The notes under the pieces: generated by a model
Database searches by the model: none
Told to the model about the DNA's origin: nothing
The model's input: the letters and a program-made list of their open reading frames with translations, nothing else
Translations under genes and position numbers: made by a program
In this document: positions 1 through 27,507 of the stretch, in pieces
Numbering within the stretch: the first letter of the stretch is position 1
Layout of the letters: each line of letters opens with the position of its first letter
Sequence record: LC494302.1
Origin: Escherichia phage SP27
Length of the DNA stretch: 64,000 nt
Direction: 5' to 3' (one strand)

Positions 1-321
1 GAAGTGAATTCTCTTAATGCTGGTAATACAGTAGATAAGTTCTTTATTGCTCAAGGGTACAGGAAAGATATTCATCAATATTGTTCAGTATATGGGGAGT
101 ACAATAGTACTGAAGATATAATTTATTGGTCAACACATCAAGATTATCTAACTAAAATTGGCGTTCCAGATGTTAGTACTTTATCTGAAGAAGAATACTT
201 TCAGTACAGCTTAGTACATGATTTACATATACCTTTAGGGTTAATCAAGGGTATGCAGGAAGAGGTTCATAAGCTTAAATCCATGAGTAAAGGTACTTTC
301 ATTAGAACAGTGCAATACTAG
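1..321 (+). CDS. FQxS-motif paralog family member, 5' end probably outside window
   Basis: ORF in frame from window edge, no in-frame ATG near 5' end; motif LSEEEYFQYSLVHD. Confidence 0.6.
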   Translation, partial: EVNSLNAGNTVDKFFIAQGYRKDIHQYCSVYGEYNSTEDIIYWSTHQDYLTKIGVPDVSTLSEEEYFQYSLVHDLHIPLGLIKGMQEEVHKLKSMSKGTFIRTVQY

Positions 322-322
322 C

Positions 323-351
323 TTGACAGTACTTTTCTTTAGTGCTATAGT
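323..351 (+). promoter_or_regulatory. sigma70-like promoter
   Basis: TTGACA (323-328), 17-nt spacer, TATAGT (346-351); upstream of ORF starting 381. Confidence 0.5.
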
Positions 352-380
352 ACCTGTACGTTAATCATAGGGTAGAAATT

Positions 381-626
381 ATGTTAAATTTTTTAAATTT
401 TCTTATCGTCTTGTGTATTGTTCTTGGGATTGCACCATTTGTATTGTATTTCATGGATTCAGATGAAATGCAGAAGATGAATTGCACAAGGACAGGACAG
501 AGTAGAGTAGAGACGATTCTTATGCCTGTTACGGTTATTGTTAACAACATGCCCATTACGAACATGGTCCCTACCCTAACGACAACGTACCAGTACTCTT
601 GTACAGACGGAGAGAGGTGGAGATGA
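381..626 (+). CDS. small hydrophobic protein (N-terminal TM segment)
   Basis: ORF directly downstream of promoter; N-terminus LNFLNFLIVLCIVLGIAPFVLYF is hydrophobic. Confidence 0.45.
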   Translation: MLNFLNFLIVLCIVLGIAPFVLYFMDSDEMQKMNCTRTGQSRVETILMPVTVIVNNMPITNMVPTLTTTYQYSCTDGERWR

Positions 627-943
627 AATTTAATATAGCAAAAACATCGAGTATATGTATTTTTGGTTATGCAGAAGAGTTAGGTGATATTGACATTCTT
701 TTGTACAAAAAGGATGGTGTTATGCATTTCAAGTACCAGGATGAAGAGGCAGACAATTATCTTTTACCTAATTTAGTACAAATGCAGGAAGAGGAATTAT
801 TCCAGTACAGCTTAATATACGACATTGTTATTTGCACGATGCCAGTACTAATTAGTATTCAAAAAGTGATGCTCGATATGTATGATAAGCTAATACAAGG
901 TACATCAGGGAGAATCATTGAAATCGATATACAAGACAATTAA
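623..943 (+). CDS. FQxS-motif paralog family member
   Basis: ATG 623 overlaps upstream stop (ATGA); RBS GGAGAGAGGTGGAG; motif EEELFQYSLIYD. Confidence 0.65.
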   Translation: MKFNIAKTSSICIFGYAEELGDIDILLYKKDGVMHFKYQDEEADNYLLPNLVQMQEEELFQYSLIYDIVICTMPVLISIQKVMLDMYDKLIQGTSGRIIEIDIQDN

Positions 944-1136
944 TCAAGAATGGAAGACCCAAAAGTACAGGGAATTCAACAGGAATTTTACAAAAGATGC
1001 ATTGAATTTAAAAACAACAGAGTTTGATATGTTTATTTTTCTTGGAACACGTTCACAAGAACAATTTGTTCATTATTATATAAATTCGTTGCGAACGGAG
1101 ATAGTATGCAAAACACAGGGTATTATAAAAAGGTAA
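918..1136 (+). CDS. small protein, family B (FLGT..QEQ motif)
   Basis: ORF; motif FIFLGTRSQEQFVHYYINSL shared with 1106, 13552 and 13748 genes. Confidence 0.55.
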   Translation: MKSIYKTINQEWKTQKYREFNRNFTKDALNLKTTEFDMFIFLGTRSQEQFVHYYINSLRTEIVCKTQGIIKR

Positions 1137-2627: not shown

Positions 2628-2928
2628 AATGATGTATACCCCAGATATGATTTATGTTGAATTAGAAGATGATGACGATGGGTGGAATTTGATTTATTCA
2701 AGAAGTTCAGGTTGGTACATGGCACATTTAAATGATTCGATAGTTACAGATTATTTTGTAGATTTCAATACATTATCCGATGAAGAATTGTTCCAACAGC
2801 AATTAGTGATTGACACGGGTGGTTATGATGTCTTATTATTAAAAAAGATACAGAAAGCTGTTATTGATTTTAAGCCCATGATATGGCAAAGGAAATATTA
2901 TGACCTCGAAGTACCATACCAGCAATGA
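2617..2928 (+). CDS. FQxS-motif paralog family member
   Basis: ORF; motif LSDEELFQQQLVID. Confidence 0.65.
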   Translation: MKYKMMYTPDMIYVELEDDDDGWNLIYSRSSGWYMAHLNDSIVTDYFVDFNTLSDEELFQQQLVIDTGGYDVLLLKKIQKAVIDFKPMIWQRKYYDLEVPYQQ

Positions 2929-3466
2929 AATTCAGTACACCTACGCTAATGCAATCCTTATGGGACAAAAGTTAGCTTGTATTGTTGCAGCCTTATATAA
3001 TGCCCAGAAATATCACAAGCGTCATTTCCACAAATGTATTGGTATTATTCCATCGAAGTACAATACATATATTGCGTGCACGAGTCATTTTGATAAACGA
3101 TTCAATACACCAGATATACCAAATGCCCGTAGTGTTATTGGTCTTTTGGATTTCGCACCTGGTGCTGTTATTGGAAAGAATGATTTAGAGTACGCATGGT
3201 ATAATAAAAATGCCCCGTTAGTAATGGTAACATATGATAAAGAAACGAACAACGCAATAGAGTACAATACATATAAATCAGAGGAAGAATTTTTTCAAGG
3301 TTCAATGCTTGTACCAGTGCGTTTGTTATTTTATAATGTCATAATGAGTACAGTACACAATAGTCCATTACACAAGAATCACAAAATTAATTTCAATTTT
3401 TGTGCTTATGCGATTGATGGTGTGTATGAGTGTTTAATGGAGGTATTGAGTTATGAAGCTGAATAA
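2900..3466 (+). CDS. FQxS-motif paralog family member
   Basis: ORF; motif SEEEFFQGSMLV. Confidence 0.65.
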   Translation: MTSKYHTSNEIQYTYANAILMGQKLACIVAALYNAQKYHKRHFHKCIGIIPSKYNTYIACTSHFDKRFNTPDIPNARSVIGLLDFAPGAVIGKNDLEYAWYNKNAPLVMVTYDKETNNAIEYNTYKSEEEFFQGSMLVPVRLLFYNVIMSTVHNSPLHKNHKINFNFCAYAIDGVYECLMEVLSYEAE

Positions 3467-3794
3467 TACATTTGATATTAATAAGTTAAGAGAATGGTTT
3501 TATAGTATTGAAATTGAAGCCATCCCGTATCATAGATATGAACAATATAATTTAACCAGTATTGATATCAGTGAGTTGTACGCGTATTATCAAAGTGCAT
3601 TAGAGATGCATAAGTTATTTTTGAGTACAGATTTTGTTCTAAATTACAATTTTGAGGAATTTAAAAATTATAATTTAGTACAGAAATATGTAGTAGCAAA
3701 GTACATGTACCTTCAAGGAATTACAAGTATAGTGGAATTCAATACAGTCCTTGCTTTAGTTGAGGTAATTTTATGCAGTACATGTATGATTTAG
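3453..3794 (+). CDS. hypothetical protein
   Basis: 113-aa ORF in gene array, overlapping neighbours. Confidence 0.55.
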   Translation: MKLNNTFDINKLREWFYSIEIEAIPYHRYEQYNLTSIDISELYAYYQSALEMHKLFLSTDFVLNYNFEEFKNYNLVQKYVVAKYMYLQGITSIVEFNTVLALVEVILCSTCMI

Positions 3795-4279
3795 AGTTCA
3801 GCTTAGATGCTGCATTTAAATATGTTCACAAGATAGAAACAATATACAGTACATTATGTGCAATAAAATCAGTAACAGAAGAGCTTGATGTTGGTGAAAA
3901 ATATCAGGTATGGAATAATACATTTTTAAATAAAGAACGTTGCTCTACGGGGTTTAATATTTTAACATTTAATCCCAGCAATTGTTACCCAGAGAAGCAT
4001 GAACGTTATCCGAATGACGACATGTGGTTTGAGTACAAAGAAGATTGTGATATGTCGTTCATTGAAGTTCCTGATGATTTTAATGCACAAGATTTAACAG
4101 ACGAGTGGTGGTTCCAGCAGAATTTAGTCCACGATGATATTGATTTATTTTTTTATGTAGTATTTAAAATGCTTTATCACAACAATATAGTACAAGATAG
4201 TGTATTTTTTTCATGTCTATATATTGATGATTTGTACAATGAAATTCAAATCAACATGCCCAGAACGCCTGTATCGTAA
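3773..4279 (+). CDS. FQxS-motif paralog family member
   Basis: ORF; motif TDEWWFQQNLVHDDID. Confidence 0.65.
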   Translation: MQYMYDLEFSLDAAFKYVHKIETIYSTLCAIKSVTEELDVGEKYQVWNNTFLNKERCSTGFNILTFNPSNCYPEKHERYPNDDMWFEYKEDCDMSFIEVPDDFNAQDLTDEWWFQQNLVHDDIDLFFYVVFKMLYHNNIVQDSVFFSCLYIDDLYNEIQINMPRTPVS

Positions 4280-4304
4280 GATATGGGCTTTTTTCGTTTT
4301 GGTA

Positions 4305-4333
4305 TTGACATAGAAGACCAAAGCTGTTATCAT
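4305..4333 (+). promoter_or_regulatory. sigma70-like promoter with extended -10
   Basis: TTGACA (4305-4310), 17-nt spacer, TGt-TATCAT (4325-4333). Confidence 0.45.
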
Positions 4334-4361
4334 GTGTATTCATTTTAAAGGAGAATATATA

Positions 4362-4874
4362 GTGAGTTTCATAATCCCAAGTACATACGAAGATGCATCA
4401 AGTGCAGTTCATAAGATTCATTATATTTTTAATTTAATTATTAGATCTGCAAAAATTAAAATGTATGCACCTCTTGTGACAAATAATCGAAATGAAGAAA
4501 TTTTTATTAGCACAGACAAAATTATTTTTCCATATTTCAATGAAGATAGATTGTGGTTCATACATTTAGCTGCATTACAAAAATATAAGATGTCAATTCG
4601 TAATAATTTGGTTATACCGTTATATCATCCCGATATTGGAGAGGATGAGTATTTTCAGTACAGCACAGTACACCGCCATGAAGATATCTTTGCTGCTATG
4701 CTTATTGCTAAATTGAACACCGTTGATTTGGAGCAGTACAAATACAATAATAAATCATGTAAGATCATAATCCCTGCATTCATAGCTCTTTATGATTATG
4801 TGGTGCATAACAAAAAAGATGATACATATGCTTTCAATGAAGAGTATTTGGATTTTTTTAAGGATAACATATGA
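4362..4874 (+). CDS. FQxS-motif paralog family member
   Basis: ORF; likely GTG start 4362 after RBS AAAGGAG (ATG 4332 lies inside the -10 element); motif GEDEYFQYSTVH. Confidence 0.6.
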   Translation: MSFIIPSTYEDASSAVHKIHYIFNLIIRSAKIKMYAPLVTNNRNEEIFISTDKIIFPYFNEDRLWFIHLAALQKYKMSIRNNLVIPLYHPDIGEDEYFQYSTVHRHEDIFAAMLIAKLNTVDLEQYKYNNKSCKIIIPAFIALYDYVVHNKKDDTYAFNEEYLDFFKDNI

Positions 4875-5410
4875 GCAGTACAACAGTATCAAAAGTACAG
4901 AAAGCAATGTCATTCAATGAAATTGGTACATTTAAAGATAAGATCATTGATTGCCTTGAATACATGATTTGTAGTAATATCGAAAGTATCGAGATATTTA
5001 ACAAGACAAATCGCTCTTACCATATGATGTACATTGCAAACAATAATGGTATCATTCCATTTATTTCGGATAGTACAATATGGTACGCATGTGATACGAA
5101 AAAAACCACAATAGGTTTACATTTATTTGAGACACATTATGATCTAATTATTCCTGAGCATTGTATGCAAGAAGAAGAATATTTTCAAATGCAATGTATA
5201 CATTCACCATTAGTGTTGTTTAGTTTATATATTATACCTTATATCACCAAATGTGTTCATGAGAATAAAGCTCCGTGGAATCATGAATTTGTATCGTTGA
5301 AGTTATTGTATAATGTATTAGTAGAATATTATGATTACAGGCACAATGGTACAATCAGTGATGTATGGGATTTTGAATCGCTAAGGGTGAAAACATACAC
5401 AGGTGAATGA
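4871..5410 (+). CDS. FQxS-motif paralog family member
   Basis: ORF; motif MQEEEYFQMQCIH. Confidence 0.65.
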   Translation: MSSTTVSKVQKAMSFNEIGTFKDKIIDCLEYMICSNIESIEIFNKTNRSYHMMYIANNNGIIPFISDSTIWYACDTKKTTIGLHLFETHYDLIIPEHCMQEEEYFQMQCIHSPLVLFSLYIIPYITKCVHENKAPWNHEFVSLKLLYNVLVEYYDYRHNGTISDVWDFESLRVKTYTGE

Positions 5411-5411
5411 T

Positions 5412-6026
5412 ATGACCAGAATTAAAATGTATGATTTGATGCAGTACAGTAAAATTGCCATTCCAGTGCTTAATAAAGTGCTGGATGCATTCATTGCCAA
5501 ATACCCTGAGAATTCAGTGTTATGTATTCCATTTAGTGTTCCAGATAAAGATGATATATTCCAAGTGAATGTCAGTACACGTGGTATTACATTACAGCAG
5601 AAATACATGGATACGGAATATTATGGAATAAAGTTGGATTCAGTACAGGGTTCAAAATCAGCCTATGATTTTTTTGTTCCTAATAATATAGAGTCATGGG
5701 AAACAAACATTTCAAAGAAAGATGAAAATGATGTTCCTATTAGTGGTGTGTTCAACAATAAAGTTTTTTATTATTACGAAACCGACAAATTCCCTGAAGA
5801 GTTATATTACAATTCAGAAATGAATGAAGATGTAGATGCATTCATGTTTCAATTATCTTTAGTACATGATATCATTGATGTTAAAGAGTTAAGAGCAGAA
5901 ATCAATTTAGCTAAAGAGTTATCGGACATGCTGCCACCGTTTAGTATGCTTTTTTGTGAAGGTGGTTATTTTTCAAAAGAAGTGTTTGAACATTTCGTAG
6001 ATGTTGTAAAAGGGTTGGATATATAG
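5412..6026 (+). CDS. FQxS-motif paralog family member
   Basis: ATG 5412 after RBS AGGTGA; motif DAFMFQLSLVHD. Confidence 0.65.
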   Translation: MTRIKMYDLMQYSKIAIPVLNKVLDAFIAKYPENSVLCIPFSVPDKDDIFQVNVSTRGITLQQKYMDTEYYGIKLDSVQGSKSAYDFFVPNNIESWETNISKKDENDVPISGVFNNKVFYYYETDKFPEELYYNSEMNEDVDAFMFQLSLVHDIIDVKELRAEINLAKELSDMLPPFSMLFCEGGYFSKEVFEHFVDVVKGLDI

Positions 6027-6027
6027 T

Positions 6028-6222
6028 ATGCTTACAGTTGATGTTAAACAAAAATACCGTAAGTTTGATTGGTTCACCGACAGTTTCCAGCTTGAATTAT
6101 TACATTTGAATATCTGTGAAACATTATGTGCAGAAACACAAGATGAATTTGATGATAGAGTGATGAACATAGTAATGCTTTCTTGCTTTAAACATTTTGG
6201 TTATTTTTTCGGACAGAATTGA
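6028..6222 (+). CDS. hypothetical small protein
   Basis: 64-aa ORF starting 2 nt after upstream stop. Confidence 0.4.
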   Translation: MLTVDVKQKYRKFDWFTDSFQLELLHLNICETLCAETQDEFDDRVMNIVMLSCFKHFGYFFGQN

Positions 6223-6230: not shown

Positions 6231-6749
6231 ATGCATCAACACAAGCATCATTCATATGATTTTGCAATTAACATTATGAAGTTCATTCGAGCGTTGGAGG
6301 ATGGGAAGCTTAGTCATAAGTACAGAAAAGAGGGTAACAATTGGTTCAGAAATGATGATGATGAGTTCAGAAGTCATAAGATTGTTTACAGCAATAATTA
6401 CAGTGCCAATTACCTACAAGATGTAGTGATGTGTTTTGAATACGTGTTGCAGTTCAGGGGTTCAATCCAGGATGAGTTGATGGAGCACATGTACATCAGA
6501 TACCTTCCAATGCTCAAAGATGAAAATGTATTATTAAATTCAATATACCAACGAGTTCGTGAAATTGAGTGCAGGGATATATTAGATACAGAAGAATCGT
6601 ATTTCCAGCAATCCCTGATTTATGCACCTGATTTATTACAGGTACATAATTTGTTTAATACATTACGTCAAAACATCAGTACAGACATATTTTTGTCATT
6701 ATCGGATTATGATACATTTGTCAAAGATTTAGAGGAAATAGGTTTATGA
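6231..6749 (+). CDS. FQxS-motif paralog family member
   Basis: ORF; motif TEESYFQQSLIYAPD. Confidence 0.65.
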   Translation: MHQHKHHSYDFAINIMKFIRALEDGKLSHKYRKEGNNWFRNDDDEFRSHKIVYSNNYSANYLQDVVMCFEYVLQFRGSIQDELMEHMYIRYLPMLKDENVLLNSIYQRVREIECRDILDTEESYFQQSLIYAPDLLQVHNLFNTLRQNISTDIFLSLSDYDTFVKDLEEIGL

Positions 6750-7090
6750 GTATATTTTCGGTTTATATAGTAAACGTCAGTAAAGATGGTAGTTTAATTG
6801 AATTTGATGTAGTTGATAACAATGATAATTCATATGGTATTAAGGTACAGGACAATGATGTACAGTTCAGTACAAGGACAAATTTTGAGAATCCAGTCCA
6901 AGTTCCGAATTTCATAGAAGATGAAGCTGCACGATTCCAATACGAAACGGCATATGACAATGTACATATGCATATTATTATGCAAACGAGTTTAGTTCAA
7001 TTAGTTCCTTTGTTCAGACAAAATATATATGTACATGAAGTGTCGATTAATGGCATTCAAAGTTCCGTTTTGTTCGGTACAAATATGTAA
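6746..7090 (+). CDS. divergent FQxS-family member
   Basis: ORF (ATGA overlap); degenerate motif EDEAARFQYETAYD. Confidence 0.6.
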   Translation: MSIFSVYIVNVSKDGSLIEFDVVDNNDNSYGIKVQDNDVQFSTRTNFENPVQVPNFIEDEAARFQYETAYDNVHMHIIMQTSLVQLVPLFRQNIYVHEVSINGIQSSVLFGTNM

Positions 7091-7100
7091 GGAAAGTACA

Positions 7101-7652
7101 ATGAGTTCAATGAGTTTATTAGATACATTAGAAAAAGACAGAAGTGCAATTAAGCGTTTAAAAGAGCAAGTACAAAAGATTGTATACAACGTTGATAAGT
7201 TTGAAGTCCCAGGAAGATTTGGTGATATTTCCCATACGGAGATCAAATCCCTTAAGTCAGATTTGTTGATTAAAAATAAAAATGGGTTGATTTTAGTTTT
7301 GAGTTCAGATATGATGGGGGCAACACATAGTTATAATGCAGTATCGGTGCGTTCAGAGTGTGAAGGTATATATCTATCACAGGGTTTCAATAGCGAGACA
7401 CAGGTTTGTTTTTGTGATGCAGTACATGACCCTATGAAGTTCACGAGAAGTGAAGCCCAAGCGTTATTAGAGCTATCAGACGAGAGTTTGTTTCAGTACA
7501 GTACAATGTATGACAATGATAAGCTTCGTTGTATGTACGCTGTAAAGCATTATACACATGAGTTCTCTGGATTTGCATACCTTTTAGTTAGAACCAATAC
7601 CAGATATATTGATATGTTAGAAGATTACATCGATAAAGTTGTTAATGTATGA
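7101..7652 (+). CDS. FQxS-motif paralog family member
   Basis: ATG 7101 after RBS AAGGAAAG (longer ORF from 7029 overlaps upstream gene); motif DESLFQYSTMYD. Confidence 0.65.
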   Translation: MSSMSLLDTLEKDRSAIKRLKEQVQKIVYNVDKFEVPGRFGDISHTEIKSLKSDLLIKNKNGLILVLSSDMMGATHSYNAVSVRSECEGIYLSQGFNSETQVCFCDAVHDPMKFTRSEAQALLELSDESLFQYSTMYDNDKLRCMYAVKHYTHEFSGFAYLLVRTNTRYIDMLEDYIDKVVNV

Positions 7653-8234: not shown

Positions 8235-8433
8235 AGACGTTTCATTTTTACAGGCCGCTGGGGGGGGTCAAAAAAATTTCCGCTGAAAAACATGCTAAGG
8301 TATATGTTTAATATAAAGTTTTATATTGTGTTTTTCAGAGTACAGTTCATGTTTCCTGAAACAAAAAATACCCCGCCCCCGCAACGTGCTCCTTATATTG
8401 GAGTTTACCTTATTAATTATAGTAGAGATTAAG
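8235..8433. other. structured intergenic spacer with G-tract, C-tract and inverted repeat
   Basis: GCCGCTGGGGGGGG (~8262-8277), CCCCGCCCCCGC (~8377-8388); 10-bp inverted repeat CTGAAAAACA/TGTTTTTCAG. Confidence 0.5.
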
Positions 8434-19094: not shown

Positions 19095-19654
19095 ATATCA
19101 ATGATTACCAATTTCATAGGCTTGAATTTCGTCATTGTGTTGCATTTGCAAAAACATTGATGTGCATCATTGACACTCTTTCATCCAAACAATTTCGTAA
19201 GGATAATGATTTATTTCTGAAAAAAGGTCGTGTAACATCATCCGATATCAGTGTTGAACTATTTGTTGATATCAGTGTTGATACCGGAGACAGTACAAGG
19301 GTTGGTTGTATAGGTCATATTGGTACACATTGCTTCACATGGAATCCAAATACAAGTCAAGTACGAATTGATTATAGAAATTCACGTTGGGTTGATCTTA
19401 GTACTGAATCCGATTTAGAATCAGCTATGTTCCAGCTAAGTTTAATTCACAATCCTAATGAACTTCTTTACATTATTACTTTCAGTTATCTGTTACAAAA
19501 CTACGATAATCCATCAGGGTTTTTCATAGAATCGGATATAGAAGAAATTATGGAAGAGTTTCCTAGTTTAAAGGATATTCTGGTAGAAAAAGATTTCTAT
19601 GAAGACTTCAGAGATTTATACGACATGCACTTGGAGTTATTTAAGAATGGATAA
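19091..19654 (+). CDS. FQxS-motif paralog family member
   Basis: motif ESAMFQLSLIHNPNE. Confidence 0.65.
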   Translation: MNINDYQFHRLEFRHCVAFAKTLMCIIDTLSSKQFRKDNDLFLKKGRVTSSDISVELFVDISVDTGDSTRVGCIGHIGTHCFTWNPNTSQVRIDYRNSRWVDLSTESDLESAMFQLSLIHNPNELLYIITFSYLLQNYDNPSGFFIESDIEEIMEEFPSLKDILVEKDFYEDFRDLYDMHLELFKNG

Positions 19655-20165
19655 AGATGATATTCTAATTAGACTAATTAAGAGTTTAATAAAGTTCTCA
19701 AATAATGATGTCGATACATACAAAGTAGGGGATATTGAATTCAAATCATTTGGTATGTACGGTGAGGACAAAACATATTATGCGTCAATGAAATTTCAAG
19801 ATTTTCACGAGATGTTAATATCGTTATCATATGAAGATGTTGATCCAAGATGGAGTTCCAGTATTTCACTATCGAGAATGGTAATTCGTAGTAAGCATCG
19901 TTACATTTCGTCAAAGAATACTCCTAACTTGATTAATATTGTGTTGAATGAAAATACCAATCCTATATCTAAACTTGATATCGTACCGTTAACCGATGAA
20001 GTACTTTTTCAATTGAGTACCATTTGTGATGAAGATGTGATATCATGTATGAAAATTTATGAGACGGTTGGGAGTGATATTCACATGAACTATTACCTAA
20101 CGATAGATGGAACATACCTCAGAGATGAAGCTCTAGCGTACATTGACAGTGTTTTACCAAAATAA
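19647..20165 (+). CDS. FQxS-motif paralog family member
   Basis: ATG 19647 after GGAG; motif TDEVLFQLSTICDED. Confidence 0.65.
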   Translation: MDKDDILIRLIKSLIKFSNNDVDTYKVGDIEFKSFGMYGEDKTYYASMKFQDFHEMLISLSYEDVDPRWSSSISLSRMVIRSKHRYISSKNTPNLINIVLNENTNPISKLDIVPLTDEVLFQLSTICDEDVISCMKIYETVGSDIHMNYYLTIDGTYLRDEALAYIDSVLPK

Positions 20166-20186
20166 AGACCCTTATGGGTCTTTTTG
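20166..20186 (+). terminator. intrinsic terminator
   Basis: stem AGACCC/GGGTCT, loop TTAT, then TTTTT. Confidence 0.7.
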
Positions 20187-20196
20187 TGTTTATGTC

Positions 20197-20225
20197 TTTA
20201 CAGTAGCATTCAGATGTGTTATAAT
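20197..20225 (+). promoter_or_regulatory. sigma70-like promoter with extended -10
   Basis: TTTACA (20197-20202), 17-nt spacer, TG-n-TATAAT (20217-20225); RBS AGGAGAAG before ATG 20253. Confidence 0.5.
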
Positions 20226-20252
20226 CACTTTTAATAGAGGATAGGAGAAGAT

Positions 20253-20819
20253 ATGAGTACTGAATTAATTAAAGAAGTTACCTTACTTCTGAAGCATTGT
20301 TTTAAGTTCATTCCTGATACTGGTTCACGCCAGTACATTAAAGTTAATGAGAAATATAACATCAATATCCTTGTATCTGAAACTGCGAGCAGTTATGCTA
20401 ACATTGAGTTGGATTCTGAAGAAAAATATACAGTATTACAAATCATAGCAGATGTACAACGTAAACAAGATTACCGTTCTTCATTTTACAACGATTATCT
20501 GTGTGTTTGCTCAAACTTCAGTGAGAATAAAATTGTGTATAAGAATTTATACACACATGAAGTGATTGATACATATAATTATAAAATTTCATCTGATGAA
20601 TACAATGTGCTAATGTTCAACGCAAACCTTTTGTATGATGCCAGTACTGTACGCTGTTTAGAGTTAGCATATAAAATTCCAAAGATCATGGAAAGAAAAG
20701 ATTTGATTCACTTTAAAACTATTTTAAAATACAGTACAAAAGAATTAGAGGATTTAGTACAGGCTCTTAAGAATTTCATTAATGAACATGTACCTGTTAA
20801 ATTCGAGGATGCACAATGA
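20253..20819 (+). CDS. hypothetical protein (possible degenerate FQxS member)
   Basis: 188-aa ORF, first gene after promoter. Confidence 0.6.
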   Translation: MSTELIKEVTLLLKHCFKFIPDTGSRQYIKVNEKYNINILVSETASSYANIELDSEEKYTVLQIIADVQRKQDYRSSFYNDYLCVCSNFSENKIVYKNLYTHEVIDTYNYKISSDEYNVLMFNANLLYDASTVRCLELAYKIPKIMERKDLIHFKTILKYSTKELEDLVQALKNFINEHVPVKFEDAQ

Positions 20820-21400
20820 ACCATATCAGAACTAAAATTTTGAGACTCATGCATGACATTGCAGAACTTTCAGAGATTCATGACATTACAGAAATTGTTG
20901 AATTTGATGATTATCGACTGAAAATTGAAAACAAATCCAAACATCGTTTTGGATCAGTTCAGTTGGATGTATATAAAACTTATGAATTTTCTAAAAAAAT
21001 TAAAAGTTCATGGGATACGATTACTATGTACATTCGCACATCCAGAAATCGTGAACGTATTGGTTCTATTTCTTCTAATATGGTATTTGCGAATGCATTA
21101 CATGAAAAAATGAATAAAATTGTAGAATCTGATTTCAGTGAAGATGATGGTTTTATTGGGTTGGATGTTCCACCAGAATTAGACCAAAGTGAAGATATTC
21201 GAGATGCATTCATTTTCCAGAAATCATTGTTGGACAATTACAAAGAATTCGAGTACTTAATGCTTTGTTACGATACTGCAAAAGTTCTTGATTGTGGTGA
21301 ACTAGTTATGTACAATGATTTTATCAATTACAAGACTGATGTTCTGAATACACTACTTCAAAATATAGAATCGGTTAAGGAAAAATATGAACGCTTATAG
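20816..21400 (+). CDS. FQxS-motif paralog family member
   Basis: motif RDAFIFQKSLLDN. Confidence 0.65.
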   Translation: MNHIRTKILRLMHDIAELSEIHDITEIVEFDDYRLKIENKSKHRFGSVQLDVYKTYEFSKKIKSSWDTITMYIRTSRNRERIGSISSNMVFANALHEKMNKIVESDFSEDDGFIGLDVPPELDQSEDIRDAFIFQKSLLDNYKEFEYLMLCYDTAKVLDCGELVMYNDFINYKTDVLNTLLQNIESVKEKYERL

Positions 21401-21965
21401 TTATATGACAGAACGCCATCAGTTATTATATGATATCAGTACAAAAATGTTATCAATTGTTAGTAGTGCAAAAGAAATTGAAAAACAATACCTCATCCGT
21501 GATGTAGCAATTTCATCTAAATGTTGGTCCAATGAATATTACGATCACGGTATTCTTACTATTTCTGGGGCTAGAAATATTTGTATTGTAAAAAATAAAA
21601 ATAAAAGTAATGAAGAGTGTGAGATTATAACCGATATACAAATTAAGGATGATGGAAGTTTTTCACACCACCCATTCCATATTAGTACTATTGGTGTTTT
21701 ATATAATATTAAAGTACTATTCGGTGATGAAGAGTATGTGTTAAAATCTATCAATCCAGAATCAAGTACAGTTGAAGAAGAACTGTTCCAGATGAGCACT
21801 GTTATACCTGAAGAGGTTCTTAGTACTGTTATTTTTTGTAGTTTAATTTATCATGAATACAAAAAGTACCAGTTCGATTTCCACATGTTAGGAACATACA
21901 TCTTCAATAATTTGAATGTAGATCGTTTAACAGCATTAAATGCAGCAATGGATAAGGTGCTATAA
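21387..21965 (+). CDS. FQxS-motif paralog family member
   Basis: motif TVEEELFQMSTVIPEE. Confidence 0.65.
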   Translation: MNAYSYMTERHQLLYDISTKMLSIVSSAKEIEKQYLIRDVAISSKCWSNEYYDHGILTISGARNICIVKNKNKSNEECEIITDIQIKDDGSFSHHPFHISTIGVLYNIKVLFGDEEYVLKSINPESSTVEEELFQMSTVIPEEVLSTVIFCSLIYHEYKKYQFDFHMLGTYIFNNLNVDRLTALNAAMDKVL

Positions 21966-22393
21966 TGACAAGAGATGATTGTTTGTACATATGGGATATA
22001 ATTGAAACTACACTTTCAAATCCAGAAAATTATAAAACAAAAAAAAGACAACGACACAAAATATGGATAGATTTGTTCGTTGAGGGCATACACGCAGTGA
22101 CTATTTGGGATTCACCGAGGGCATCATCATCTACTCTGTTGGACAATGAATGCATTGATTGCATTAATTCCACTTTTCATCTCTACGGTACTACAATTTT
22201 TGGTACATTTCTGGATATTGAAAGTAAAGATGATATTGATTCACTTGCGTTACAATACCAAGTACTATATAATACTAAATTAATTTACGATTTAGTACTA
22301 GCTTCTTATGTGTATAAATTAATGATGAAATATAATCATATTTCTGTTTCAGTTTATACTAAGGATATTCTTTCATTAAGAGACAAAACATGA
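21965..22393 (+). CDS. hypothetical protein (possible degenerate FQxS member)
   Basis: 142-aa ORF; weak LALQYQVLYN match. Confidence 0.55.
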   Translation: MTRDDCLYIWDIIETTLSNPENYKTKKRQRHKIWIDLFVEGIHAVTIWDSPRASSSTLLDNECIDCINSTFHLYGTTIFGTFLDIESKDDIDSLALQYQVLYNTKLIYDLVLASYVYKLMMKYNHISVSVYTKDILSLRDKT

Positions 22394-22899
22394 GTTTATT
22401 AAATGCACGCGAATTGGTTGAGATGTATGAGATTTTGTCTTCATATAAAAATTCTCCAAAAGATGTAATTCTAAACAAAAAGTTCCATGTCAGTGTTGAA
22501 CATATAACAAATATAGATATGATTTCTTTGGTGGAAAGTAATAAGTCAGGTCTGGAGCGTGATATCATGCGTTTGATTTATATTCCTAAACCATCATATA
22601 CTAATGATAGTACTATTAGCAATGAGACATTCATGTATAGTCCTGGTACGGATTCTACTATAGTATCGCTGTCCAATAAATCAATGGATACTTTCCAATT
22701 CATCTATACCAGTACTGATAACATTGAAGAAATTGAATTTCAAAACAATACATTAAGTCCATGTAGTAGTGTTATAACCTTTATGTCATATCTATGGTCA
22801 ACTAAAACAAGTGCTGTTGTATATAGTTCAAATTATACACAAGATAGTATTGTTGAATCATATAAAGTTCTAAAGGAATACTATGAAAATAACAAATGA
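22390..22899 (+). CDS. divergent FQxS-family member
   Basis: motif EEIEFQNNTLSP. Confidence 0.6.
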   Translation: MSLLNARELVEMYEILSSYKNSPKDVILNKKFHVSVEHITNIDMISLVESNKSGLERDIMRLIYIPKPSYTNDSTISNETFMYSPGTDSTIVSLSNKSMDTFQFIYTSTDNIEEIEFQNNTLSPCSSVITFMSYLWSTKTSAVVYSSNYTQDSIVESYKVLKEYYENNK

Positions 22900-23464
22900 T
22901 TTTATTAAAAGTGTAGTACACCCTATGCTTAGTATTATGAAAAAAATACAGAATCTACCGGAAGATAACGATTACAAGTTTAATCGTTTTGATTCAGATG
23001 TGTTTTGTATTGAAATTGAAATTAATAACAATCGTAATTTACATTTAAAATTCAAAGAATCTTCGAGTCCGTACTACAACTTTGATATGAATTTTAAAAT
23101 AGATACTGACATTGAAGAAAACGTAATATCAAATCATACTAGCAAAAATGGTTTTATGCATAGAACTACTATGTACAATAATAAAAATAGTATTATATCT
23201 AAATGGAATCAACAATTCACTAAAATTTGTGAAATTGAATATAATGATTTTGGTAAAGAACATTACTTTCAGTTAAGTACAATTCATGAACTTCCACCAT
23301 ATGATTATGTTAAAACATGGTTTGATATTCATAATATAATTGATGATGCAATCAAACTTCCATTTGGTGTGTCAATATCATATACTGCTCCTAAAACATT
23401 TGTTTTTACTGAAGATATGATTATGAAAAAGATATGGGCAATCATCCCACTTATGATGGATTAA
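22883..23464 (+). CDS. FQxS-motif paralog family member
   Basis: motif GKEHYFQLSTIHE. Confidence 0.65.
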   Translation: MKITNDFIKSVVHPMLSIMKKIQNLPEDNDYKFNRFDSDVFCIEIEINNNRNLHLKFKESSSPYYNFDMNFKIDTDIEENVISNHTSKNGFMHRTTMYNNKNSIISKWNQQFTKICEIEYNDFGKEHYFQLSTIHELPPYDYVKTWFDIHNIIDDAIKLPFGVSISYTAPKTFVFTEDMIMKKIWAIIPLMMD

Positions 23465-23470
23465 ATTTGT

Positions 23471-23496
23471 ACCAGGGGTTGACTCTGGTTTTTTTG
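23471..23496 (+). terminator. possible intrinsic terminator
   Basis: short stem ACCAG/CTGGT followed by T7. Confidence 0.4.
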
Positions 23497-23525
23497 TATG
23501 ATACATTGTTCTCAAGGAGAATTTT

Positions 23526-24077
23526 ATGAACTACAATCATGATCTTTTTACATTATGTGCATCCAAATGTGTTGAAGGATGGGCAGATAAAATCAATATC
23601 ATAATTCATCGATATCTCGTCTTTAGTTCCCGTGCACGAAGTGAGGGGGCTATGGATTTCAAATATACACTATCTATTGATGGTGTAACTATCCATGCAG
23701 ACGAAGAACGTCTGAACATTAATTTGTATGATTCCTGTGTATTTGCTATTCACCAAAAGATGGGGAAAGGATGGGGTTGTAATAACATTAACTCCAAAGC
23801 TATCTTTTGGGTTGGTCACCATCAGACAGTACTTGATCCTTCAATCAAATCTAATCTTTTATCCGATAATATGGTTTATGATTTATTGTACTCCGAAGAA
23901 CAACATTTTCAGTTAAGTACATTGCATGTTCTGGCACAGTACGAGGATTGTTACAAAACATTAGAACTATGCCATTCCCTTGAACTTAAAGATAAATTAA
24001 TACAAGTTTACCCTTCATTCTTTCATGAAGAAGTCCAAAGTACACTAGATCATATTTTATATGGATACGATAAATGA
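23526..24077 (+). CDS. FQxS-motif paralog family member
   Basis: motif SEEQHFQLSTLHV. Confidence 0.65.
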   Translation: MNYNHDLFTLCASKCVEGWADKINIIIHRYLVFSSRARSEGAMDFKYTLSIDGVTIHADEERLNINLYDSCVFAIHQKMGKGWGCNNINSKAIFWVGHHQTVLDPSIKSNLLSDNMVYDLLYSEEQHFQLSTLHVLAQYEDCYKTLELCHSLELKDKLIQVYPSFFHEEVQSTLDHILYGYDK

Positions 24078-24676
24078 GAAAAAGTTATCAAGAAGCTATT
24101 GACTTAATTCGTGAAGTTATCAAGGTGGCTCCTGCTGCTATTGAGTTCAAGAAGTCCATATACAAGAAGTATGGGTCAATGTCGAGTATGTGCTTTCAAA
24201 AGAAACGTAGAGCATTCACTACCCAGTACTGGAATGATTCTATCATCCTGAGCAATGAGACTCAGCGTATTTTAACACTAGAATCTGAACCTAATGAGTA
24301 CGGGGAAGGAAACATTTGTGTACCTGATTATGATGAAATTAACTTCAACTGCGGTGATTTTGAAACAACATTATTACTTCATGAGGGTTATCCAGAAGGT
24401 GATGTATTAGCTGAATACAATCCAAAAACTAAAATTCTCAAAAGAGGAATTCAGTTCACTATTAATAACAAAGATGATGTTGAAGCAGCACTGATGCAAC
24501 TGAGTACAAGTGAACCTATCACTATTAGTGTAGAAGAGTTATGGGGAATTATTTCAGTACTCAATGAGTGCTATAAAGTAAAATCATTGCGTAATCACAC
24601 CCTTATATTGCATACTAATATGGCAAATATAAAATGTAAGCACATTCAAGAAATGGTGGTTCCAGATGGACTTTAA
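24074..24676 (+). CDS. divergent FQxS-family member
   Basis: motif VEAALMQLSTSEP. Confidence 0.55.
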   Translation: MRKSYQEAIDLIREVIKVAPAAIEFKKSIYKKYGSMSSMCFQKKRRAFTTQYWNDSIILSNETQRILTLESEPNEYGEGNICVPDYDEINFNCGDFETTLLLHEGYPEGDVLAEYNPKTKILKRGIQFTINNKDDVEAALMQLSTSEPITISVEELWGIISVLNECYKVKSLRNHTLILHTNMANIKCKHIQEMVVPDGL

Positions 24677-25250
24677 AGAAATTGAAAGTAAATTAAAGTA
24701 CTTCAAAGATATCAAACTTCTTTGGGAAAAGTATAAAATTGATTACAATTTCAGTGATGATGAGACAATAAAATACATTGAGATTAATATCAAAATCAAG
24801 TTCAAGAATAATAATTATGGTGAAGTAAGCTTAAATCATGCTGGTATATCACTCAAGGACTATGATGGTTCAACACTCGCATATTTCGACTTCACACCAG
24901 AACCAGGTGAAACACTACTTAGTGAGATAAATTCCTATGACATGGAAGTGTTCGGCGGGAATCCGTTACTGTTCCGACTTTCTGAAGAGTGGAGTGAAGA
25001 ATACTACACTTACAAAGATGGTGTAGTACTTGACATTCATGGAGAAGTTGTGAATGACTTGGAAGAACGTTTGTTCCAAGAATTGTGTGTTTCAAATACT
25101 TCATATGCATACAATCATATCCTTGACATGTTTGATTTATATAGTAAAATAGATGCTGAAATGAATGCACATGGTATTCATTACCTTACAATTAACGACT
25201 ATGCTCAACTCGAAACCGCTGTGAAAGCATTGACTAAAGTACTGAAATAG
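24666..25250 (+). CDS. divergent FQxS-family member
   Basis: motif LEERLFQELCVS. Confidence 0.6.
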   Translation: MDFKEIESKLKYFKDIKLLWEKYKIDYNFSDDETIKYIEINIKIKFKNNNYGEVSLNHAGISLKDYDGSTLAYFDFTPEPGETLLSEINSYDMEVFGGNPLLFRLSEEWSEEYYTYKDGVVLDIHGEVVNDLEERLFQELCVSNTSYAYNHILDMFDLYSKIDAEMNAHGIHYLTINDYAQLETAVKALTKVLK

Positions 25251-25259
25251 GAATGAAAT

Positions 25260-25673
25260 ATGAAACTGTATCATGCGAGTACTGTAAAAATTGATAACTT
25301 TTATATCCCGTATGGTGGCCTTCATATGGGAGGTAAACACAGTGCTTTAGAAGCTGCCTTACGCAAGCTGAGAAGCCCACTAAACGTTGTTGACGCATGT
25401 ACAGTATACTTGCATACCTTAGAAGTTGATGTTGATAACGTGCTTCTGTGTGAAGATTTAGGCAGTGATGATGAGTGGCGTTCACTTATTGAGAATTGCA
25501 CGGCTCAAGGTTATGATGCTGTTCAGTACAAAAATGATTACGAGCCAGACAATGTTCCTAGCTTTATGATTTGGGATACATCTAAAATTCGTATTATTGA
25601 AGTTGATGCGATGCATATGGATGAAGCTGAAATGATCATCGAAGATTTCCTTGATGAATATGAAGGTGTATAA
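25260..25673 (+). CDS. hypothetical protein, compositionally distinct from neighbours
   Basis: 137-aa ORF with RBS; visibly GC-richer; three shadow minus-strand ORFs cluster here. Confidence 0.6.
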   Translation: MKLYHASTVKIDNFYIPYGGLHMGGKHSALEAALRKLRSPLNVVDACTVYLHTLEVDVDNVLLCEDLGSDDEWRSLIENCTAQGYDAVQYKNDYEPDNVPSFMIWDTSKIRIIEVDAMHMDEAEMIIEDFLDEYEGV

Positions 25674-26191
25674 TGATTGAACCTATGACAGTACTAGCAC
25701 GTACTAAATTATTATTGAAGATTGCTGAAATATTCACTGTTCTTATGTACAATAATCAAGACATAACTGACTTAGGTATTAAGCAACCGTGGCAAATTAC
25801 AAAGTTCACGGCGTTCCACCGATTGTCATATAATGGTGAAACTGTTCTTGATTTTAATCCAAAAGCCACGTTCGTGAATTACGCTGCATTATATGGATGT
25901 AATGGTGGATTAACAAATGACTTCACTGAAATAAAAGTACAATCAGAATCATTAGAATTTAATGACTTAATATATCCAGAATTTAAGTTAACAGAAGAAA
26001 CACTATTTCAGTACTCACTAATTATAAAAGATGTATATGATCTTGAGTACTACAAAGAGTTAGTAGATATTTTTAAGAATACTCGACTTTCAAAAGATAT
26101 TGTGATATTCTGGTATGTTGAGTATGTTACAGAGGAATTGCTAGAAGAATTTCTTCTAAATATGACAGCTATAAAGGAGAAGTTATGTTAG
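25673..26191 (+). CDS. FQxS-motif paralog family member
   Basis: motif TEETLFQYSLIIKD. Confidence 0.65.
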   Translation: MIEPMTVLARTKLLLKIAEIFTVLMYNNQDITDLGIKQPWQITKFTAFHRLSYNGETVLDFNPKATFVNYAALYGCNGGLTNDFTEIKVQSESLEFNDLIYPEFKLTEETLFQYSLIIKDVYDLEYYKELVDIFKNTRLSKDIVIFWYVEYVTEELLEEFLLNMTAIKEKLC

Positions 26192-26658
26192 ATATTTTAG
26201 GAAACATCGACACTGCAAATTATTTTATTCAAGATGCATTGTTTAATACAGTACAACAAGGTTTAGAAGTTCACCACAATGTTTATCAGGGTGATGGATA
26301 TTTTGTTGATATTATCGAGACACGTAAAAATACATTTAATGTTAACATTACGACGCTTGGAAGACAGAACATTGCACGAATTTTAGTAAGTAAAGATGAA
26401 ATAGTACTGAGATACAGTGCTAAGTTTATGTTGACTTATAAGAAAAAAACTGATATGTTCAGTACTAATTTATTTGATGAGCCATTTGACCTTGAAGATA
26501 TTGAAGCTACTTTCTTTACTCAAAGTACTATGGTAAAATACACTGATGTTCAATTTTCTGCTGATGTAATGTCAGAAACATTACAAATGATCAAGGTATT
26601 ATTTTATGCATTTGAGCAATTTAGAGAAGAAAGAAACAAGGTTAACAACCACAGATGA
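26185..26658 (+). CDS. divergent FQxS-family member
   Basis: motif EATFFTQSTMV. Confidence 0.55.
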   Translation: MLDILGNIDTANYFIQDALFNTVQQGLEVHHNVYQGDGYFVDIIETRKNTFNVNITTLGRQNIARILVSKDEIVLRYSAKFMLTYKKKTDMFSTNLFDEPFDLEDIEATFFTQSTMVKYTDVQFSADVMSETLQMIKVLFYAFEQFREERNKVNNHR

Positions 26659-27019
26659 ACTAATAGAGGCGATCACTAAGGAGTCAAAATACCATAAAGG
26701 GATTCGTCTATACTTTATAGATACTGGTTCGATGGAAGGTACATACATTTATGGTTCACAATCGTTGTCTTATGATGCAATGCCAAATAAACATGTTAAA
26801 ATCTTTTTAGGTTCAAGTAATAAAACTTTCTTGACAATTAATGATAAAAACGTTATTATGAATTCGTTGGGTCATGATAAGGTGGAAATTGATCTAAACA
26901 CGCTGGAGGATATTGATTTTTTTCAATACGAGTGTTTAGGTGTTGACTTACATGGCATTAGTAGCGATATGATAAAATCATTAATCAAATATTTCGAAGG
27001 TGTTCATAAATGTATCTAA
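26606..27019 (+). CDS. divergent FQxS-family member
   Basis: motif EDIDFFQYECLG; start uncertain (53-nt overlap). Confidence 0.55.
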   Translation: MHLSNLEKKETRLTTTDELIEAITKESKYHKGIRLYFIDTGSMEGTYIYGSQSLSYDAMPNKHVKIFLGSSNKTFLTINDKNVIMNSLGHDKVEIDLNTLEDIDFFQYECLGVDLHGISSDMIKSLIKYFEGVHKCI

Positions 27020-27507
27020 CTAAATCAATGAAAAATTCATTTGATAAAATTAAGAGTTGTCTTGATGGAGAAAATATTACAAGTGTTACACAAACTGCTG
27101 ACCAAATTCAAAGCAGTTCAAGTGATTGCACTGTTATTTTTGGTTTACATAGTCTGCGTTTATCAATAGTAAATAATATTGACAACACTGCTATTGTAAT
27201 CACACCATGCAATATTCAAAATGAGAATGGTGTATATCTTCATCACATGGGAACAGTATTTCACATTTTCAATTCAAACGAAAACATTGTTAAGGAATAC
27301 AATACTCTTAATATTGATTCAGGTGAATTATTTCAAATGAGTACTTTGTACTCATGTAATTTTACAGATACTTCATGTATTTTGCCATTTTTCTTGGAAA
27401 TTATTAAGAAAATGGAAAATTTAAAACGTGAATACAATAAAGAAATGGTTCCTGAAGCTATATTAAATATTACTAATGCTATAGAGAAGTATAATGCAGT
27501 GACTTAA
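27010..27507 (+). CDS. FQxS-motif paralog family member
   Basis: motif DSGELFQMSTLYS. Confidence 0.65.
   Translation: MYLTKSMKNSFDKIKSCLDGENITSVTQTADQIQSSSSDCTVIFGLHSLRLSIVNNIDNTAIVITPCNIQNENGVYLHHMGTVFHIFNSNENIVKEYNTLNIDSGELFQMSTLYSCNFTDTSCILPFFLEIIKKMENLKREYNKEMVPEAILNITNAIEKYNAVT

Follow-up and report, generated by a model that had tools for sequence, protein, structure and literature searches.

A clade-restricted, tandemly expanded family of small FQ-motif genes in the Escherichia jumbo phage SP27

A family of small paralogous genes in the first 27.5 kb

We analyzed a stretch of 64,000 nucleotides of Escherichia phage SP27 (LC494302.1; the whole stretch is called the window here), which begins with an array of small genes sharing a Phe-Gln (FQ) motif. 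The first-pass annotation of this sequence had called the phage T4-like. By megablast, the relatives of the window were the Asteriusvirus group, 350-kb E. coli jumbo phages of the PBECO4/121Q type, and the phage is RaK2-like rather than typically T4-like. The array region was 98% identical to BAU.Micro_ELP-22 and 91% identical to PBECO4, and the DNA-ligase region was 99.8% identical to PBECO4. All array genes are annotated as 'hypothetical protein' in all records.

The same annotation had proposed 45-50 paralogs built around one acidic-aromatic core. A simple scan for an E/D-rich stretch followed by FQ-x-S-[LT]-[VI] returned about 40 plus-strand open reading frames (ORFs). The stricter pattern [DE][DE]..FQ.[SNAQ][LTC][VILM] was found in 25 of the 65 plus-strand ORFs before 27.6 kb and in none of the 74 ORFs in the rest of the window, while 500 shuffles of the same 65 proteins gave a mean of 0.004 matches and a maximum of 1. 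The motif is shared far beyond chance, and homology reaches beyond it. BLASTP single linkage connected 24 genes. An iterated full-length hidden Markov model (HMM) collected 34 genes with none of the shuffled decoys listed, a core-only HMM of 70 columns collected 40 genes at 23-71 bits (best decoy, 9.6 bits), and an HMM iterated across five phage genera collected 41 genes at 18 bits or more (decoys at 13 bits or less). All but two of these 41 solid members lie on the plus strand within 27.5 kb.

Profile-profile comparison with orthologs (hhalign) added two probable members and five possible ones at 15-46%, all described below. Controls (14480, 25260, 26185, 27550, 3453, 1338, and 29418) stayed at about 1% or less. 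The family in the window thus has 41 solid members, 43 if the probable ones are counted, and about 48 at most, and the count of 45-50 was a fair one. The statement that nearly every gene belongs to the family was too strong: of the roughly 65 plus-strand ORFs in 1-28 kb, members account for about two thirds, and about 17-24 ORFs, roughly a quarter to a third, are something else. The non-members include four genes of a second, unrelated small family and conserved genes such as 14480, 25260, and 26185. Among three outliers named outside the array, 38585 and 39160 proved to be members, while 30211-31059 was rejected (hhalign 6%).

Members are of a long type (147-229 amino acids) or a short type (103-137 amino acids; 11 genes). 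All lie on the plus strand, and the scores below are those of the core HMM unless stated otherwise. The first gene in the window is of the short type and is cut at its 5' end by the window start (4-321; LSEEEYFQYSLVHD; 60.1 bits); its phAPEC6 ortholog has 134 amino acids, and at least one further gene lies upstream in relatives. Another short-type gene is found at 599-943 (MQEEELFQYSLIYD; 58.4 bits). A long-type gene at 2079-2627 (YDEAEVFQKSLITK; 51.6 bits) and a short-type gene at 2617-2928 (LSDEELFQQQLVID; 51.0 bits) are followed by long-type genes at 2900-3466 (KSEEEFFQGSMLVP; 48.5 bits), 3773-4279 (LTDEWWFQQNLVHD; 47.4 bits), 4332-4874 (IGEDEYFQYSTVHR; 44.8 bits), 4871-5410 (MQEEEYFQMQCIHS; 50.6 bits, and 91 bits with the full-length HMM), 5403-6026 (DVDAFMFQLSLVHD; 34.9 bits), 6231-6749 (DTEESYFQQSLIYA; 46.3 bits), and 7029-7652 (LSDESLFQYSTMYD; 48.6 bits). 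Within this run, the ORF at 6746-7090 (EDEAARFQYETAYD) is a possible degenerate member, with 16.0 bits in the cross-genus HMM, above the decoys of that round, and 18% in hhalign. A 64-amino-acid ORF at 6028-6222 containing 'FTDSFQLELLHLN' may be the truncated remnant of a family member.

Three short-type genes come next, at 8326-8811 (LDDAALFQEALVFD; 55.0 bits), 8808-9167 (MDTAELFQESLVFD; 62.1 bits; modelled below), and 9164-9523 (LDDGELFQAALVFD; 49.1 bits). The TTG start listed for the first of them is probably wrong, and the real start is probably the ATG at 8434. Positions 8235-8433 then form a non-coding gap of about 200 nt, unusually long within the array. It contains eight G in a row (8260-8267), a C-rich stretch (8372-8381), and several AT-rich inverted repeats, and it has no Rfam match; Rfam and tRNA scans of the whole window also returned nothing. 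In phAPEC6, at least two extra genes (gp446c and gp445c) are annotated just downstream of the 8326-8811 ortholog, and gp445c is a family member. Five long-type genes follow at 9533-10024 (DSEEYYFQQSTVYD; 71.3 bits), 10026-10496 (GSEEFYFQQNTIYE; 56.8 bits), 10493-10936 (GTEEYYFQQSLIFN; 61.6 bits), 10936-11427 (DSEEYYFQNSTLYN; 71.2 bits; modelled below), and 11402-11845 (DSEEYYFQNSTLYD; 67.8 bits), the last being a divergent allele relative to phAPEC6 (synonymous divergence, dS, 0.74). After a short-type gene at 11842-12156 (DHETFLFQESLVWD; 47.9 bits), long-type genes lie at 12156-12629 (NSEDAYFQYSTIYP; 51.0 bits), which is the sole member lacking a reciprocal-best ortholog in phAPEC6, at 12595-13041 (STEEGYFQGSTVYN; 50.2 bits), at 13038-13574, and at 13929-14489 (NTEENIFQNSVLHD; 52.9 bits). 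The gene at 13038-13574 has a degenerate motif (SFEEQCFQLSCTDP), scored at least 18 bits in the cross-genus HMM, and is the reciprocal best match of RaK2 L002:13295-13828.

The next members are short-type genes at 15088-15450 (MQEDELFQESLVWD; 52.4 bits) and 15440-15775 (LDEGELFQESLVFN; 40.7 bits), long-type genes at 15735-16319 (LNQEYYFQLSLLFP; 44.4 bits), 16379-16855 (NTEEEFFQYSTVYP; 57.3 bits), and 16852-17337 (MSEEMYFQGSCIHD; 58.9 bits; tblastn relatives in the RaK2 group at 31% identity), short-type genes at 17327-17689 (LSEEELFQQSTIST; 46.8 bits) and 17673-18086 (MTPDELFQYSLVFP; 37.5 bits), and a long-type divergent allele at 18074-18568 (LSEESYFQNSLIYT; 49.3 bits; dS 0.77 to phAPEC6). 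The gene at 18552-19094 has lost the Q and is a probable member (hhalign 62%, P 7e-5): it is the reciprocal best match of RaK2 L002:23747-24331, and its MERIKFSLS aligns with WEEEMFQLS of that ortholog, which is itself a family member. Two long-type genes then lie at 19091-19654 (DLESAMFQLSLIHN; 45.8 bits; reciprocal best match of RaK2 L002:22607-23215) and 19599-20165 (LTDEVLFQLSTICD; 59.2 bits).

In the right-hand part, long-type members are found at 21387-21965 (TVEEELFQMSTVIP; 52.2 bits), 22883-23464 (FGKEHYFQLSTIHE; 44.9 bits), 23526-24077 (YSEEQHFQLSTLHV; 25.2 bits), 25673-26191 (LTEETLFQYSLIIK; 23.0 bits, and 47.7 bits with the full-length HMM), and 27010-27507 (IDSGELFQMSTLYS; 37.4 bits; reciprocal best match of RaK2 L002:30742-31239), which is the last of the contiguous array. 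The gene at 22390-22899 (NIEEIEFQNNTLSP) is a probable member (hhalign 89%, P 2e-6), and its RaK2 ortholog (L002:26027-26518) is a member. Possible degenerate members are interspersed at 20816-21400 (IRDAFIFQKSLLDN; cross-genus HMM 16.1 bits; hhalign 15%), 21965-22393 (no FQ; hhalign 39%, P 3e-4, with the alignment over the motif region), 24074-24676 (hhalign 25%, P 8e-4), and 24666-25250 (DLEERLFQELCVSN; hhalign 46%, P 2e-4).

The two dispersed members, 38585-39163 (FGLPEHFQISTLYD; 28.6 bits) and 39160-39849 (MSEEEHFQLMMMRA; 34.4 bits), adjoin each other. Their closest paralogs are 22883-23464 and 23526-24077, respectively, and because these are also an adjacent pair, the dispersed genes look like a two-gene duplicate. 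This suggests an old block duplication that moved 15 kb downstream.

The motif and the predicted fold

Curated databases gave nothing recurrent, in agreement with the first impression that the family was not a recognizable one. When 40 members were scanned against Pfam-A, NCBIfam, and PADLOC, no family was matched by more than one member, and the best E-values were 0.014, 0.017, and 0.0013, respectively. The family profile compared with PDB sequences gave a best E-value of 1.2. In PHROGs, members were split among many groups (9317, 12674, 33775, 28549, 15629, 13866, and others), all of 'unknown function'; the neighbors of about 280 amino acids at 28181 and 30211 fall in other unknown PHROGs. 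A link to the 'peptidase' group phrog_15439 was dismissed, as it was a single weak match (E 0.003) that was not repeated in other members. Among 1.84 billion cluster representatives, searched exhaustively with the HMM, only 167 proteins reached E of 0.001 or less, all of 65-250 amino acids.

We pooled 183 family sequences from two database searches. Their consensus was [ST]-E-E-x-[YL]-F-Q-x-S-[LT]-[VIL]-[YHF]-[DN], with F and Q in 100% of the sequences, the two E in 80% and 76%, S in 88%, and D/N in 60%. Moderately conserved aromatic or aliphatic positions were spread along the whole protein length. The mean column identity of the family was 13% and the nearest paralog typically scored 25-35 bits, consistent with the proposed many rounds of duplication and divergence. 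No extra fused domain was found among the 183 sequences; a 242-amino-acid protein, P0021, consisted of two short members joined. The motif was located 58-154 residues from the N-terminus and 40-98 residues from the C-terminus. A distance of 40-70 residues from the C-terminus had been proposed, and this fits all members (40-75) but 39160-39849, in which the distance is 98. The short form has an additional invariant Gln about 20 residues after FQ. Members are acidic, with a median isoelectric point of 4.7 and 9 more acidic than basic residues.

Models of one member of each form were obtained with AlphaFold2, and they were confident despite shallow alignments. The short member 8808-9167 (predicted local distance difference test score, pLDDT, 86; predicted template modelling score, pTM, 0.81) was modelled with five strands, helices at 66-76 and 84-100, and a strand at 109-113, so that a five-stranded antiparallel sheet is followed by two helices and by a strand at the C-terminus. 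In the long member 10936-11427 (pLDDT 89, pTM 0.83), the model has a helix at 3-22, seven strands, helices at 99-103, 109-115, and 121-135, a strand at 141-144, and a helix at 146-152. Compared with the short form, the predicted long form has two more strands and an additional helix at each end. Foldseek searches against BFVD matched only uncharacterized proteins of 121Q, SP27, RaK2, GAP32, Serratia BF, and Yersinia fHe-Yen9-03. Proteins of the p32/MAM33/gC1qBP fold are very acidic and have one helix at the N-terminus, seven antiparallel strands, and helices at the C-terminus. This fold was considered and rejected: its scores were within noise, beside RNA polymerase lobes and polo boxes, there was no Pfam MAM33 match, and p32 was absent from the top 60 matches of the long-type model.

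In both models, the motif accounts for the first helix past the sheet (109-115, SEEYYFQ, in the long form; 66-76, TAELFQESLVF, in the short form) and for the turn that leads to the next one. This helix sits in the best-modelled blocks (pLDDT 96-98 in the long form and 96 in the short form). The conserved S/T is placed at the start of the motif helix and D/N at the start of the following helix, and these positions would therefore fit helix-capping roles. From the models, we read F-Q and the capping-type residues (S/T, E-E, D/N) as a probable structural keystone of a shared scaffold, rather than as a detachable docking or cleavage peptide. The first-pass annotation had pictured a conserved module joined to variable parts and processed by, or docked to, a common partner. 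What the models show instead is that each protein folds as one compact domain. Hydrophobic and aromatic positions are conserved over its whole length, and the location of the motif helix in the most confident part of the fold, not in an exposed linker, argues against a processing site. The WxxxE type III effectors offer a parallel: they are very divergent proteins with two invariant residues that hold the fold and are not catalytic, which is how we would read F-Q. Their fold and organisms are unrelated to those of the FQ family.

The clustering of E, E, Q, S, and D/N within 12 residues might also be taken as the active site of small enzymes acting on varied substrates. Invariance, however, is limited to F and Q, other residues stand at each of the E, E, S, and D positions in 12-40% of the sequences, no similarity to any enzyme fold or family was found in the structure and profile comparisons, and the S/T, E-E, and D/N positions would fit N-cap roles in the two modelled helices. 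We consider an enzymatic function hardly probable at all.

It is less easy to set aside the idea that the motif is a docking or processing site for one common partner, either a host machine or a phage factor such as the phage-encoded ClpP system, with the rest of each protein selecting targets as an adaptor would. At a family identity of 13%, F and Q never vary and E-E and S are 76-88% conserved, and conserved polar residues often mark interfaces; the invariant polar Gln keeps a shared-interface role open for F-Q. A true ClpP is encoded at 52411-53106 (PF00574, E 4e-41), and a ClpA-like ATPase is listed in relatives. Against this idea, the motif is modelled as a helix in the best-defined part of a compact domain, conservation extends outside the motif, no member is fused to another domain, and the known degrons and adaptor tags of Clp systems are peptides at protein ends. 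We regard a common partner as unlikely.

Proteases of the tobacco etch virus (TEV) type recognize E-x-x-Y-x-Q followed by S or G, and E-E-x-Y-F-Q resembles this pattern. Among the family sequences, 80% have E at P6, 44% have Y at P3, and all have Q at P1; the P1' residue is variable, S or G directly after Q is rare, and the conserved S comes one position later, at P2'. As the site is modelled as a well-ordered helix, TEV-like cleavage was retained only as a reading of low probability. A bolder form of the common-partner idea makes the E-E-x-Y-F-Q helix a handle for one partner (the phage ClpP/ClpA-like protease or a host machine) and the divergent sheet a device capturing different host proteins, including those of defence, which would then be destroyed or sequestered. 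The family would be a phage counterpart of the poxvirus ankyrin/F-box or BTB adaptor families, and its copy number would follow how diverse the host defences are that each phage lineage encounters. We hold this to be highly improbable, and a version in which E-x-x-Y-F-Q is a real cleavage site of an unrecognized Gln-specific protease is more exotic still.

Distribution, copy number, and selection

The family was limited to RaK2-like jumbo phages. Copies were counted with one HMM threshold between the left direct terminal repeat and a marker gene, the conserved gene just downstream of the array (27550-28023 in the window), by which the syntenic site can be recognized in every RaK2-like jumbo phage. 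There were 6 copies in CBB, 7 in Serratia BF, 8 in GAP32, 17 in fENko-Kae01 (with about 5 further ORFs carrying the motif below the threshold), and 32 in RaK2. Asteriusvirus-type phages had 38 (coliphage A4), 41 (this window), and 44 (fEgEco12). This comparison of copy number and order in relatives, which the first-pass annotation had proposed, thus revealed lineage-specific numbers from 6 to 44. The genes are homologous, adjacent, on the same strand, and variable in number by lineage, as expected of a lineage-specific tandem expansion of paralogs. We conclude securely that the FQ genes are a true, ancient, clade-restricted multigene family with a fold unmatched in PDB.

The array lies next to the terminal repeat in relatives. 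In CBB and fENko-Kae01, the first member is about 25-65 bp from the annotated repeat boundary. In fEgEco12, whose ends and 20,993-bp terminal repeat were confirmed by restriction digests (PMC13070987), the repeat is followed by 27 tandem copies of a family of about 70 amino acids (21.1-27.3 kb) and then by the FQ family at 27,270-56,262.

Within the genus, the array is stable. One-to-one orthologs in the same order were found in phAPEC6 for 39 of 40 members. The ratio of nonsynonymous to synonymous divergence (dN/dS) against phAPEC6 was 0.30 when weighted by length (median 0.25), and genes beyond 32 kb had a median of about 0.05. That each copy is kept under purifying selection is secure. Six members are replaced by divergent alleles (dS 0.4-0.8) among nearly identical neighbors, which indicates recombinational mosaicism. 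Mosaic hot spots were seen at 11402-13041, 17327-18568, and 25673-26191, with dS of 0.4-0.8 and amino acid identity of 66-80% to phAPEC6, implying that alleles have been replaced through recombination between co-circulating Asteriusviruses.

In a comparison of Asteriusvirus with RaK2, orthologs in the right-hand part of the array have kept their positions but share only 22-30% identity, against 58-64% for the non-family genes interspersed among them. Relationships with RaK2 are many-to-few in the left-hand part, which has therefore undergone lineage-specific duplication. The paralogs in the window are mostly old, with best matches of 20-40% identity, and two younger clusters were seen at 8326-9523 and 9533-11845. 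The non-family genes 25260-25673, 26185-26658, 27550-28023, and 29418-29804, which lie within the array or just past it, are 40-64% identical to RaK2 and hence much more conserved between genera than the members are; they have no Pfam match and were found in all seven loci examined.

These comparisons bear on whether the array is largely dispensable filler, tandem duplicates kept to fill a large capsid with little function per copy; a ratchet in which a large capsid must be filled was proposed by Hua et al. 2017 (PMC5646251). The closest paralog is at most 2 gene ranks away for 29% of the members, compared with 9% expected, and several array genes have degenerate or lost motifs, as filler would allow. 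On the other hand, dN/dS is about 0.3 and reading frames are intact in all members, 39 of 40 have one-to-one orthologs in a different species, F-Q is invariant in ancient paralogs, and some orthologs hold their position between Asteriusvirus and RaK2. We give the filler explanation little credence.

Gene layout, predicted promoters, and probable role

A single-strand, overlap-coupled and promoter-punctuated layout had been noted on first reading, and it was borne out. In 1-28 kb there are 66 ORFs, all on the plus strand, with 50 of the 65 junctions overlapping. Only seven gaps exceed 40 nt, 451 nt in total or 1.6% of the region. Of the nine plus-strand sigma-70-like sites that are strongest in this region, four lie within these gaps. 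Five of the seven gaps contain near-consensus, TG-extended sigma-70-like sites, identified as consensus matches only. The site at 323-351 (TTGACA-17-TATAGT, 11/12) lies in the gap 322-380, that at 4305-4333 (TTGACA-17-TATCAT, 11/12) in the gap 4280-4331, the perfect-consensus site at 16316-16345 (TTGACA-18-TATAAT, 12/12) in the gap 16320-16378, that at 20197-20225 (TTTACA-17-TATAAT, 11/12) in the gap 20166-20252, and a weaker site at 23479-23507 (TTGACT-17-TACATT, 9/12) in the gap 23465-23525; all are on the plus strand. Three sites are paired with preceding terminator-like hairpins, also on the plus strand: one at 4267-4288, followed by a T run just upstream of the 4305 site, one at 20164-20183, and one at 23471-23489.

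No Asteriusvirus or Alcyoneusvirus transcriptome was found in the literature. In RNA sequencing of the distant relative PA5oct, small genes of the terminal-repeat region were classed as early (PMC7318152). None of the phAPEC6 orthologs, gp404c-gp466c, is among 62 virion proteins (PMC7247149). The idea that the members are virion or internal proteins was ruled out by this proteome and by the position of the motif. In an ultrafiltered lysate of fENko-Kae01 (the >300 kDa retentate, from which small soluble proteins would be washed out), only CDS_077 of CDS_051-077 was detected (PMC11218385). It is a motif-carrying array gene below the HMM threshold, at the position of 27010 in the window.

That detection would suit proteins serving phage development, as chaperones or assembly factors for a complex virion or as regulators of transcription or replication, and so would the purifying selection on all paralogs and the order conserved within the genus. 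The copy number, however, varies from 6 to more than 40 between genera of very similar virion architecture, the array lies at the left end with sigma-70-type promoters and away from structural genes, members diverge far more between genera than the flanking non-family genes do, and the acidic isoelectric point argues against DNA binding. A developmental role appears distinctly unlikely to us.

The role we find most likely, at about an even chance, is that of early intracellular proteins acting on host or competitor targets. The effector or host-takeover arsenal suggested in the first-pass annotation is thus still the most plausible reading. The grounds for it are contextual: the array lies at the left end and has host-type promoter-like sites, its products are acidic and absent from a virion proteome, and the family diverges fast between genera and has expanded in a lineage-specific way. 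The proposed account is as follows. The genes of this clade-specific, tandemly expanded family of RaK2-like jumbo phages, at least 41 and probably about 45 in the window, lie in the first unique DNA past the left terminal repeat and would be transcribed soon after DNA entry, probably by host sigma-70 RNA polymerase in a handful of long, translationally coupled operons. Each encodes one small (about 100-210 amino acids), mostly acidic, single-domain cytoplasmic protein with the predicted alpha/beta fold. The paralogs would be stoichiometric binders of different proteins of the host or of competing elements, in host takeover or counter-defence, with specificity coming from the divergent surfaces of the common scaffold. 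No paper linking array genes to counter-defence was found in the literature.

Several observations weigh against this account. The total number of promoter-like sites was not above the shuffled expectation, so that only the placement of the best sites is informative. The CDS_077 product of fENko-Kae01 sits in >300 kDa material. A dN/dS of 0.3 means purifying selection and carries no signature of an arms race. Finally, the mean identity is about 13%, and strict conservation of a polar Gln against that background is commoner for functional than for structural residues.

Multigene families at genome ends are known from large eukaryotic DNA viruses, such as MGF110/360/505 of African swine fever virus and the ankyrin/PRANC host-range families of poxviruses. 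Like the FQ array, they consist of tens of diverged paralogs near a terminal repeat, vary in copy number by lineage, are non-structural, and have presumed or known host-directed roles. They have no sequence or fold relationship to the FQ family, whose host is bacterial and whose copy content is stable within the genus, not accordion-like. The early or pre-early blocks of T5 and T7 and the small early genes of T4 also encode small acidic proteins beside a terminal repeat, read in one direction from host-type promoters (which are predicted sites in the FQ array), and so does the PA5oct repeat region (PMC7318152). Those blocks are composed of unrelated genes, whereas the FQ array is a single family. 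T4-type internal proteins share with the FQ family a short conserved sequence on diversified small proteins whose genes lie in a variable region, but theirs is an N-terminal peptide removed by the prohead protease, while the FQ motif is internal and helical and no FQ member occurs in the phAPEC6 virion proteome.

Among jumbo phages, a zinc-ribbon expansion of about 35 copies in Bacillus phage G was called unprecedented in a comparative survey (Iyer et al. 2021, PMC7824862). The array of 121Q, which is of the same genus as the window, and the phage G zinc ribbons are likewise lineage-specific tandem expansions of tens of copies in a jumbo phage; the FQ family differs from the latter in not being a zinc ribbon, in its high divergence, and in its at least 41 copies. 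One sentence of Hua et al. 2017 (PMC5646251) mentions '>30 very similar genes' in the 121Q array, giving no family definition, motif, fold, or distribution, and a 2026 review (PMC13282480) repeats it; neither names the genes meant. The literature search found nothing beyond that sentence, and the genome papers of CBB, phAPEC6, Sharanji, fEgEco12, and fENko-Kae01 do not describe the FQ family. We therefore consider the family new and uncharacterized, although paralog expansions in jumbo phages and large viruses are already known as a kind.

The sentence of Hua et al. may fit a neighboring family at least as well. This second expanded family, of about 65-95 amino acids with an 'LGT[ND][YF]Q[EQ]' motif and copies that are much more alike, is present in the window at 918-1136, 1106-1372, 13549-13770, and 13748-13939. 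It supplies the 27 tandem copies right after the terminal repeat of fEgEco12 (L011 4092-10281), immediately upstream of the FQ array. Kinship between the two families, both of which have an aromatic-Gln motif, was ruled out (hhalign 0.3%). A third small family at 34566-35975 comprises five tandem paralogs of 88-103 amino acids with an N-terminal 'F/LTYK..YDL'-like start and no Pfam match. Downstream of the array, a host-conflict/repair block (32297-33348, 40111-43009, 49315-50733, and 58142-61577) encodes, according to phAPEC6 annotation and Pfam, a Dam methyltransferase, a cytidyltransferase, RNA ligase 1, a PseT polynucleotide kinase/phosphatase, a DNA ligase, a Sir2-family protein (PF02146, E 4e-20), a Nudix hydrolase, and a PhoH-like ATPase. 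ClpP is the only recognizable protease in the window, and the ClpA-like ATPase is listed in both the annotation and the proteome of a relative.

The FQ genes occupy about 8% of the 350-kb phage genome, and their 41-45 copies exceed the expansion of about 35 copies in phage G (PMC7824862). The family profile allows consistent annotation of 'hypothetical proteins' across RaK2-like phages. The range of 6-44 copies among sister genera infecting different Enterobacterales provides a natural experiment on what drives the growth of a gene family. If the products are early effectors, the array would amount to a ready-made collection in which one scaffold comes in more than 40 variants, each of which may target a different host protein, and it would be useful for finding new mechanisms of host takeover and counter-defence and for understanding the host range of jumbo phages proposed for therapy.

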